DNA from: Candidatus Micrarchaeota archaeon
Lineage (GTDB): Archaea > Micrarchaeota > Micrarchaeia > Anstonellales > Bilamarchaeaceae
DNA length: 64,000 nucleotides
NCBI GenBank assembly: GCA_043812915.1
Contig: JBDRLQ010000004.1
Span: forward strand, 949 to 64,948
Reading direction: 5' to 3'
Shown: positions 57,761 to 59,432 of the stretch, one piece after another
How positions within the stretch are numbered: the first letter of the stretch is position 1
How the letters are laid out: every line of letters begins with the position of its first letter
Program-made: the position numbers and the translations under genes
Notes under the pieces: generated by a model
What the model was told of the DNA's origin: nothing
Seen by the model: only the letters and a program-made list of their open reading frames with translations
Database searches by the model: none

Positions 57761-57955
57761 TTGGAATTTCCAGTAAGATGCTTTACGTGCGGAAACGTTA
57801 TCGGGCAGCTGTATGAGCAGTACAAGGAAATGCTCAATACAACGTCTGCGGAGGGAGCCCTGGACAGCCTCGGCATCCACCGCTACTGCTGCAGGAAGAT
57901 GTTCGTCGCCCATGTGGACACCGTGGATACAATCCTGCGGTACCCGAGAGTATAG
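57761..57955 (+). CDS. rpoN: DNA-directed RNA polymerase subunit N (Rpo10/RpoN)
   Basis: (M)EFPVRCFTCGNVIG...YCCRKMF..HVD matches Rpb10. The only in-frame start next to the motif is TTG at 57761, 5 nt after the rps9 stop. Confidence 0.85.
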   Translation: MEFPVRCFTCGNVIGQLYEQYKEMLNTTSAEGALDSLGIHRYCCRKMFVAHVDTVDTILRYPRV

Positions 57956-58078
57956 AGGCATTTTTGCCTTTTCTCTTTTTCTTTTACTCCAGTTTTTCTC
58001 ATTTTTGATTCTCATTAACATCTGGGAATGGCCTCTTTTAATAAGTTGTAGTTAATATATATTAGTGTTATATTGATT

Positions 58079-58260
58079 CCTGCATTGTGAAATGCAGGAC
58101 TGATGTCATGGCAAGACTGAAAATGACATGTTCGCAAACCCCGCGGAAGCAAATGTGCGGAAACCTCTTACTAAGGCGGATTCAAACCGCATAGTCAGCC
58201 AGGCCCGGGCAGGGGATGTTCATCTCCGGTCCCGCTCGTGGTGCAGAACCTGTTGATTTT
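58079..58260 (+). ncRNA. unassigned hairpin-rich noncoding segment (ncRNA candidate)
   Basis: No ORF. An AT-rich TTAATATATATTA lies at ~58052-58064. Five consecutive hairpins: 58079-58098 (7 bp), 58103-58129 (7 bp), 58141-58160, 58176-58190 (GCGG-ATTCAAA-CCGC, T-arm-like), 58212-58227. Ends at a T-run at 58257-58260. Confidence 0.25.
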
Positions 58261-58307
58261 AGTGATATCGCAAGGACGATGTGCCTCTGAAGCGACCGCA
58301 TAGAGGG

Positions 58308-58315
58308 TATATAAA
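58308..58315 (+). promoter_or_regulatory. TATA box TATATAAA for tRNA-Pro
   Basis: 35 nt upstream of the tRNA 5' end at 58350. Confidence 0.5.
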
Positions 58316-58349
58316 TCCTTCTACCGATAAAATCTCTTTAGATACCATT

Positions 58350-58496
58350 GGGGCCGTAAGGTAACCTGGTATCCTGCGTCCTTGGGGTGGACGTTATCTG
58401 AGAAAATCTCTCAGCTTTATTGCTGTGGGGTTTCAGGAATTCAATCCTCCGGTTATCAACGCCTGCGGCCGGACGGAATAAATCTCGGCGGCCCCA
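58350..58496 (+). tRNA. atypical tRNA-Pro (anticodon GGG) with a ~74-nt insertion in the T-arm/acceptor region
   Basis: Canonical 5' part: GGGGCCG-TA-AGGT-AACCTGGTA-TCCT-G-CGTCC-TTGGGGT-GGACG (58350-58393). The matching 3' acceptor strand CGGCCCC plus discriminator A is at 58489-58496, followed by a T-run. In between are CTGAG-AAAATCT-CTCAG (58398-58414) and about 74 extra nt. Confidence 0.55.
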
Positions 58497-58501
58497 TTTT
58501 T
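58497..58501 (+). terminator. oligo-T tract after tRNA-Pro
   Basis: TTTTTGTTT lies immediately 3' of the discriminator base, typical of archaeal termination. Confidence 0.4.
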
Positions 58502-58526: not shown

Positions 58527-59432
58527 ATGGCAGAAGAAGAAACTGAAAAAGTGGATGAAGAGAAGAGTGGCATGCCTGTCAAGCAGGAAATGTTCCTTGA
58601 GGCGGGTATGCATATAGGTACGAAGATTCGTACGAATGATATGAGGGATTTCGTCTTCAAGAGAAGGGATGACGGGCTGTTCATTCTGGACCTTCGGAAG
58701 AGCGCTGAGCGGCTCATGTCGGCAGCGAAGATGATCTCCCAGTTCAGGCCAGAGGATGTGCTTGTAGTCGCATCGCGTGTGTACTCAAGCAACCCTGCAA
58801 CCAAGTTCTCACAGCTGACTTCCATACCCCTTGTCAAGGGGAGGTTTGTCCCAGGCACCATGACCAACATGATGTGCGCGAGCTTCAAGGAGCCCAAGCT
58901 TGTCATGGTCTGCGATCCGAAGGGGGAGAGGGAAGCAATCCTCGAGAGCGCCAAGAACGGCGTTCCTGTAATCGCGCTCTGCGACACTGACAACGAGACA
59001 AAGTTCATCGACCTGATTGTGCCCATCAACAACAAGGGCAAGCGCTCGCTGGCACTGACCTTCTACATCCTTGCCAGGGAGCTTATGCTTTCCCAGGGCA
59101 AGATAAAGGACTACTCAGAATTCCCATTCGAGGTCCACCACTTCGAGCAGCCGCCTCCTGAAAAGAAGGAGGAGGCGAAGGCTGAGGAAGCTGTTGAAGC
59201 CGCAAAGGAAGAGGCAGCAAAAGAGGAAGCCGAGAAGGAAGAAAAGGCCGCAAAGGACAAGGAAGAGGAGAAGAAGGCCGAGGAAGCCCTCAAGGTGGCC
59301 AAGGACGAGAAGGAGTCCAAGGAGAAGCCGAAGAAAGAAGAGAAGCCGGAAAAGAAGGCCGAAGAGAAGAAAGAGGCCGCAAAGGAAGGGAAGCTGGCAA
59401 AAGAAGACGCTTCAGAAGAGAAAAAGGAGTAA
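58527..59432 (+). CDS. rps2: 30S ribosomal protein S2 (uS2) with a ~95-aa E/K/A-rich C-terminal extension
   Basis: The uS2 core (LEAGMHIGTK...VCDPKGEREAILESAKNGVPVIALCDTDN) is followed from PPPEKKEE to the stop by a low-complexity tail. Confidence 0.92.
   Translation: MAEEETEKVDEEKSGMPVKQEMFLEAGMHIGTKIRTNDMRDFVFKRRDDGLFILDLRKSAERLMSAAKMISQFRPEDVLVVASRVYSSNPATKFSQLTSIPLVKGRFVPGTMTNMMCASFKEPKLVMVCDPKGEREAILESAKNGVPVIALCDTDNETKFIDLIVPINNKGKRSLALTFYILARELMLSQGKIKDYSEFPFEVHHFEQPPPEKKEEAKAEEAVEAAKEEAAKEEAEKEEKAAKDKEEEKKAEEALKVAKDEKESKEKPKKEEKPEKKAEEKKEAAKEGKLAKEDASEEKKE

Follow-up and report, generated by a model that had tools for sequence, protein, structure and literature searches.

Two adjacent non-canonical introns very likely split the T loop of a tRNA-Pro(GGG) gene in a Micrarchaeote

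What kind of gene begins as a textbook archaeal tRNA-Pro, but carries the 3' strand of its acceptor stem displaced by about 74 nt? The locus in question lies at 58350-58496 on the plus strand of the window, i.e. the whole stretch of 64,000 nt that was analysed (C4:949-64948 of a 26-contig MAG of 1.30 Mb with 53% G+C, from a groundwater metagenome). A sequence-only reading of this DNA had left three options: one non-canonical intron in or after the T arm, multiple introns, or a decaying or rearranged gene. Only multiple introns hold, while the single intron and the decaying gene are rejected on the basis of a scan for splice motifs, of covariation and of the lack of another GGG copy. Our data indicate with high confidence a genuine tRNA-Pro(GGG) gene whose T loop is split by two non-canonical introns flanking a mini-exon.

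Re-reading of the sequence confirmed the 5' part of the tRNA as it had been described before, with acceptor, D and anticodon arms all in place. Exon 1 (58350-58402, 53 nt, tRNA positions 1-53) starts with the acceptor 5' strand GGGGCCG (58350-58356), followed by the D arm AGGT/AACCTGGTA/TCCT and the anticodon arm CGTCC-TTGGGGT-GGACG, which ends at 58393 and whose loop TTGGGGT provides the anticodon GGG and G37. The variable loop consists of four nucleotides (TTAT) and leads into CTGAG (58398-58402), the 5' strand of the T stem. Upstream, the previously noted TATA box TATATAAA was found at 58308-58315 on the same strand, 35-42 nt before the tRNA, and is taken as its promoter. The element GGTATA(T)AAATCCT is also present upstream of the orthologue in the same-family genome G016.

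The remaining 94 nt are arranged as follows. Intron 1 (58403-58439, 37 nt) is inserted at position 53/54. It is followed by the micro-exon TTCAA (58440-58444), corresponding to positions 54-58 (T54-Psi55-C56-A57-A58), and by intron 2 (58445-58481, again 37 nt) at position 58/59. Exon 3 (58482-58496, 15 nt) is identical to that of the same-genus orthologue and comprises A59 and T60, the T-stem strand CTCGG, the acceptor 3' strand CGGCCCC (58489-58495) and the discriminator A73 (58496). The stretch 58480-58488 reads AAATCTCGG. CCA is not encoded. Directly behind the discriminator follows TTTTT (58497-58501), an archaeal termination signal that is shared by most orthologues. The distal acceptor strand, discriminator and oligo-T had been recognised correctly in the sequence-only reading, as had the element GGAATTCAATCC at 58436-58447, within which the micro-exon is located. 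All exons are colinear on one strand within 147 nt, which rules out a split or permuted tRNA gene.

The gene lies behind the L18e-uL13-uS9-RpoN cluster and directly upstream of the ribosomal protein gene uS2 (58527-59432, plus strand), which starts 30 nt downstream of the tRNA. This neighbourhood is conserved across Micrarchaeota and served as synteny anchor; the syntenic relatives all carry Candidatus Micrarchaeota titles. Between rpoN and the tRNA promoter about 390 nt (57956-58349) are devoid of an ORF. An E-value search of 57940-58360 against Rfam gave no credible match, and RNA contigs cover 58159-58308 at low depth.

Removal of both introns in silico yields a 73-nt cloverleaf that is called as tRNA-Pro(GGG) by ARAGORN. 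The only part missing from the T loop of the unspliced gene is TTC(A), and TTCAA occurs exactly once at the right place (58440-58444). The spliced T arm, CUGAG-UUCAAAU-CUCGG, matches that of the Pro(CGG) and Pro(UGG) genes of the same genome (CTGAG-TTCRAAT-CTCGG/CTCAG). Hence the join of CTGAG, TTCAA, AT and CTCGG, already proposed from the sequence, restores a canonical T arm exactly. The raw locus in contrast resulted in spurious ARAGORN calls only, whether or not introns were searched for and also when thresholds were lowered, and neither singly spliced form was called. Rfam showed no tRNA match at the locus at gathering or E-value threshold, nor was the locus listed in a search of the whole genome with RF00005 up to E=1. 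Both programs miss the gene due to the two non-canonical T-loop introns. The same applies to any finder limited to introns at 37/38.

ARAGORN with intron search additionally reported a tRNA-Ser(GCT) and a tRNA-Arg(CCT) (G000 C3:177820-178822 and C20:83810-84811) with introns of ~910 nt; these calls probably arise artificially from allowing introns of up to 3000 nt. Several expected tRNAs such as His, Trp and Ile-GAU were absent from the calls. Further genes with non-canonical introns are therefore likely in this genome.

The splice sites were then considered as bulge-helix-bulge (BHB) motifs, i.e. two 3-nt bulges flanking a 4-bp central helix. Both introns show this geometry, contrary to the earlier impression that no convincing BHB could be folded. 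BHB1 has the central helix TCTG (58397-58400)/CAGG (58434-58437), the bulges AG|A (58401-58403) and AA|T (58438-58440) and an inner helix of 7 bp (AAATCTC 58404-58410/GGGGTTT 58427-58433). Its outer helix is weak, consisting of one base pair, a mismatch and another base pair. BHB1 thus is of the relaxed type and, having nearly no outer helix, appears to lean on an endonuclease of relaxed specificity (ε2, see below). BHB2 is composed of the central helix ATTC (58439-58442)/GAAT (58476-58479), which becomes GTTC/GAAT once intron 1 is gone, the bulges AA|T (58443-58445) and AA|A (58480-58482), and the inner helix CCTCCGGTT (58446-58454)/GGCCGGACG (58467-58475) with 8/9 pairs. The outer helix GGA (58436-58438)/TCT (58483-58485) comprises 3 bp in the precursor and 2 bp after removal of intron 1, the GGA strand being the tail of this intron. 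At sequence level the second join is ambiguous among 56/57 to 58/59, with 59/60 excluded; BHB geometry assigns it to 58/59.

Scanning with loose criteria produced many chance matches, so BHB geometry alone was not counted as evidence. Weight was put instead on restoration of the cloverleaf, shuffling and comparative data. When the 79-nt insert was shuffled, 39/300,000 sequences gave two 4/4 central helices around TTCRA, and 0/300,000 also had inner helices with ≥6/7 pairs, as compared to 7/7 and 6/7 in the real sequence. The 53-nt 5' exon moreover shows 96% identity to relatives (E=7e-19). Taken together, the exon/intron arrangement is well beyond chance.

Would one intron be sufficient? A single long non-canonical intron of ~74-79 nt, removed in one step, is the simpler model, and a local hairpin CTGAG-AAAATCT-CTCAG at 58398-58414 is indeed present, as the sequence-only reading had pointed out. 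Its role as T arm however does not hold: the 3' strand lies inside intron 1 and the hairpin is missing in orthologues. The mature tRNA would furthermore have a non-standard T loop, e.g. CUGAG-AAUAAAU-CUCGG or, with the intron at 65/66, CUGAG-AAAAUCU-CUCAG. T54-Psi55-C56 would be missing from these loops, in spite of G18-G19 being retained in the D loop. In the BHB scan, the 5' splice site at 58402 finds its only partner in a 3' exon start at 58440, and none near 58476 or 58489. Relatives without one of the introns read GAG|TTCAA or TTCAA|AT directly. We consider a one-step model hardly tenable, and the same goes for either of the T loops it implies. The duplications of GTTATC (58393-58398 and 58452-58457) and AAATCTC are present as reported, but appear coincidental and have no role in the two-intron model.

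The comparison with related genomes, which the sequence-only reading had suggested, revealed conserved exons, variable intron presence and covarying helices. The same-genus genome G001 shares both outer exons at 100% identity (53/53 in exon 1). It lacks intron 1 exactly (CTGAG|TTCAA) and has a different 37-nt intron at the identical 58/59 site. Both introns are present in the complete genome G016, a member of the same family, around an identical micro-exon; their helices are different in sequence but complementary. L047 lacks intron 2, again exactly, and L040, L042, L052 and L053 lack both; these intronless orthologues have the same layout as our spliced product. Since relatives without one or both introns represent natural 'spliced' alleles, all four intron boundaries are fixed. 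In one intronless orthologue (L040/L075, JAZDDV010000005.1) the T loop reads TCCAAAT; position 55, nearly always U (pseudouridine 55), is a C here.

To assess covariation, 16 two-intron orthologues were aligned, all of which (16/16) have an invariant micro-exon, and four helices with 24 pairs were evaluated. Across these, 92.4% of the cells are paired, compared to 34-57% if the partner strand is slid. Changes on both sides were seen in 13/24 pairs, and the observed values were reached in 0/500 shuffles. Pairing amounts to 100% in helix 1 (the BHB1 central helix), 94.6% in helix 2, 93.8% in helix 3 (the BHB2 central helix) and 86.7% in helix 4 of intron 2, the latter with double changes in 8/9 pairs.

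The distribution of introns was surveyed in 64 Micrarchaeota species representatives sharing the 5' exon; counts derive from a BHB-guided parse which left three genes unparsed, and alignment-based positions are approximate. Both T-loop introns around TTCRA were found in about 33 species, i.e. about half, a single T-loop intron in about 17 and no intron in 11, while 5 carry a further intron, located at 37/38 or in the variable region. The two-intron layout always adjoins uS2. In some species, e.g. L049 and L050, the second intron resides at 59/60. Intron 1 varies from 20 to 144 nt between species, the maximum being reached in L029/L090 and L098. Deviating layouts were noted in the set L026/L104, L039/L072, L050/L078, L030/L080, L046 and L048: some genes have three introns, combining one at 37/38 or in the variable region with both T-loop sites, L030/L080 carries two introns at 37/38 and 58/59, and others have a D-loop intron.

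These data also bear on the possibility that the locus is a decaying or rearranged pseudogene, in which the 79-nt insert is junk and the tRNA no longer made. That standard finders do not call the locus would fit, as would the RNA data, which showed unspliced RNA or DNA only. In a pseudogene, however, one would hardly expect exons that are 100% identical to the same-genus orthologue next to introns that are diverged or absent, BHB helices that covary across genera, or a layout that about half of 64 species keep beside uS2. The promoter is intact as well, and so is the terminator. The search for other tRNA-Pro genes, likewise proposed beforehand, identified the CGG and UGG isoacceptors, but no second tRNA-Pro(GGG) by ARAGORN and RF00005 in the ~90% complete assembly. 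As no second GGG copy is found in the assembled 90%, the gene is needed for the usual set of three proline isoacceptors. Overall, decay of the gene is very improbable.

RNA data are available from one metatranscriptome of the same study, the only RNA run in which the locus was found. It contains the locus as a single gap-free, unspliced contig (58352-58727) that runs into uS2. No splice joints were seen in this library, which is random-primed, kept as contigs and hardly captures mature tRNA. It thus contains the unspliced form or contaminating DNA and says nothing about the mature tRNA. The contig reaches from the tRNA 5' end across both introns and the T5 tract to 200 nt into uS2, with a word depth of 22.8, compared to about 3.7 in the flanks. 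The spacer between tRNA and uS2 is 30 nt long and has no visible promoter; given this and the single RNA contig, tRNA and uS2 may share a transcript. The sample also contains another Micrarchaeote (DNA contig depth 31), which likewise has a two-intron tRNA-Pro(GGG), seen at contig ends corresponding to 58363-58405. Its intron 1 matches that of L041, and its gene too is unspliced in RNA contigs.

The genome harbours a 391-aa EndA ORF (G000 C12:37029-38213) with Pfam matches to tRNA_int_endo and tRNA_int_endo_N. Residues 4-391 align to residues 5-387 of PDB 4FZ2 (E=1.1e-130), which is the three-unit ε2 EndA of ARMAN-2; enzymes of the ε2 type are known to cleave BHB motifs that are relaxed and lie at non-canonical positions (PMC3239211, PMC3488258). 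Judged by this alignment, the genome encodes a three-unit ε2-type endonuclease of broad specificity. The ligase RtcB is present as well (G000 C16:100989-102294) and is the only tRNA ligase gene. Its sequence is split between two overlapping frames, the change occurring at an A5 run (CTGGAAAAAGCGG, near 101530), which is probably an indel error of the MAG or its assembly rather than a real frameshift. Another short ORF of 165 aa (G000 C3:36929-37426, L065) matches the tRNA_int_endo catalytic domain (Pfam E=1.5e-11) and could be an extra endonuclease subunit or a paralogue.

Maturation might proceed as follows. Transcription from the TATA box at 58308-58315 would start ~10-12 nt upstream of the mature 5' end, so that RNase P would have a short leader to remove. 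The ε2-type endonuclease would cut each 3-nt bulge between its second and third nucleotide and RtcB would join the exons, while RNase P, RNase Z and the CCA-adding enzyme would complete the 73-nt tRNA. BHB1 requires nucleotides 58439-58440 to be bulged, BHB2 in contrast needs them for pairing in its central helix. The 3' strand of the BHB1 central helix moreover serves again in the outer helix of BHB2. Owing to the conflict at 58439-58440, BHB1 and BHB2 are mutually exclusive conformations and cannot coexist, which makes stepwise splicing necessary. In this manner the 5-nt exon would not be released as a free oligonucleotide.

Probably intron 1 goes first: G53 would be joined to U54, and BHB2 would form afterwards. 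This order is favoured since the G53-U54 join gives a BHB2 central helix of 4 bp in 18/19 orthologues examined. In L029, L038 and L043 this helix has 3/4 pairs in the precursor, the mismatch closing to 4/4 only upon removal of intron 1. The minimum-energy fold of our precursor, with the three other arms enforced, likewise contains the helices of BHB1 together with the hairpin of intron 2, and lacks the BHB2 central helix. Intron 2 may alternatively be removed first via a strict hBHBh', with intron 1 to follow, or no fixed order may exist. BHB2 is complete already in the precursor of the window, with the ATTC/GAAT helix at 4/4, an outer helix of 3 bp (GGA 58436-58438) and 8/9 inner pairs. The folds with BHB1 and BHB2 are moreover close in energy (-48.3 vs -46.9, a difference of 1.4 kcal/mol), so either order is structurally possible in the window. 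A fold in which the T stem persists and the intron hairpin sits within its loop is in turn predicted to be ~11 kcal/mol more stable than the BHB2 conformation. Considering the helix mismatch in the three relatives and the minimum-energy fold, another or no fixed order seems the less probable scenario, albeit one that carries appreciable weight.

The hairpin loop of intron 2 (58455-58470; alignment columns 83-96) has the nearly invariant motif A..AA..ACCTGCGG across genera, which may also be written A..AA..ACCUGCGG and includes the conserved CCTGCGG, while the stem covaries. Intron 2 is 36-39 nt long in most species, as opposed to the variable intron 1. Loop motif and length being kept while the stem covaries suggests that constraint acts on the loop itself. 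Intron 2 could hence be more than a passive insert, its loop having a function of its own, although we rate this as rather unlikely. One possibility is that the CC of the loop docks on G18-G19 of the D loop in place of the disrupted T loop, such that the precursor stays L-shaped for processing. Another possibility is that the loop acts as a stable excised or circular small RNA. ACCTGCGG(CTGGAT) presumably resembles the 3' strand of helix 45 of 16S rRNA, but an 8-mer match easily arises by chance. A mobile intron family was considered and rejected, as CCTGCGG was found in no other tRNA-like context of this genome.

The closest known case is the pre-tRNA-Pro(GGG) of ARMAN-2 (Candidatus Micrarchaeum acidiphilum), for which T-loop introns at 53/54 and 59/60 were described and tied to the ε2 endonuclease (Fujishima et al. 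2011, Nucleic Acids Res 39:9695, PMC3239211, Fig. 1C). Both organisms are Micrarchaeota, and the isoacceptor (GGG), the two adjacent T-loop BHB introns, the position of the first at 53/54 and a genome with the same ε2-type endonuclease agree. They differ in the second intron, 58/59 here versus 59/60 there as taken from the text of that paper, and hence in the micro-exon of 5 nt versus 6 nt. Moreover BHB1 has no real outer helix in our case, whereas the ARMAN-2 motifs are called strict hBHBh' (PMC3239211). The gene is thus an orthologous case in another Micrarchaeota lineage of a phenomenon that has been published since 2011 and is ordinary for the lineage. As such, the basic phenomenon will not surprise a specialist.

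In Thermoproteales and other Crenarchaeota, too, a tRNA gene may carry as many as three BHB introns at non-canonical positions (Sugahara et al. 2008; reviewed in PMC4033280). The parallels are an endonuclease of broad specificity and intron numbers that differ between related species, but the crenarchaeal enzyme is an (αβ)2 heterotetramer and not of the ε2 type. Introns of such crenarchaeal genes usually reside in different arms, not 5 nt apart within one loop. With the canonical archaeal intron at 37/38 (Marck and Grosjean 2003) the locus shares the 3-nt bulges, the 4-bp helix, the cut between bulge nucleotides 2 and 3 and the pathway of EndA plus RtcB, but there the intron resides in the anticodon loop and here in the T loop.

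For genome annotation the finding has a direct consequence. An automated pipeline would wrongly list tRNA-Pro(GGG) as absent from this MAG and from about half of the Micrarchaeota genomes, which might prompt the inference of an unusual decoding of CCC and CCU. If intron 2 has indeed a loop function, this combined with the exclusive BHB motifs would amount to an obligatorily ordered, intron-assisted maturation pathway. The locus could be used to ask how the ε2 endonuclease copes with two overlapping BHB motifs that are 5 nt apart. Finally, the same orthologous gene beside uS2 with 0, 1, 2 or 3 introns depending on the species constitutes a clean natural series, in which gain and loss of archaeal tRNA introns could be studied.
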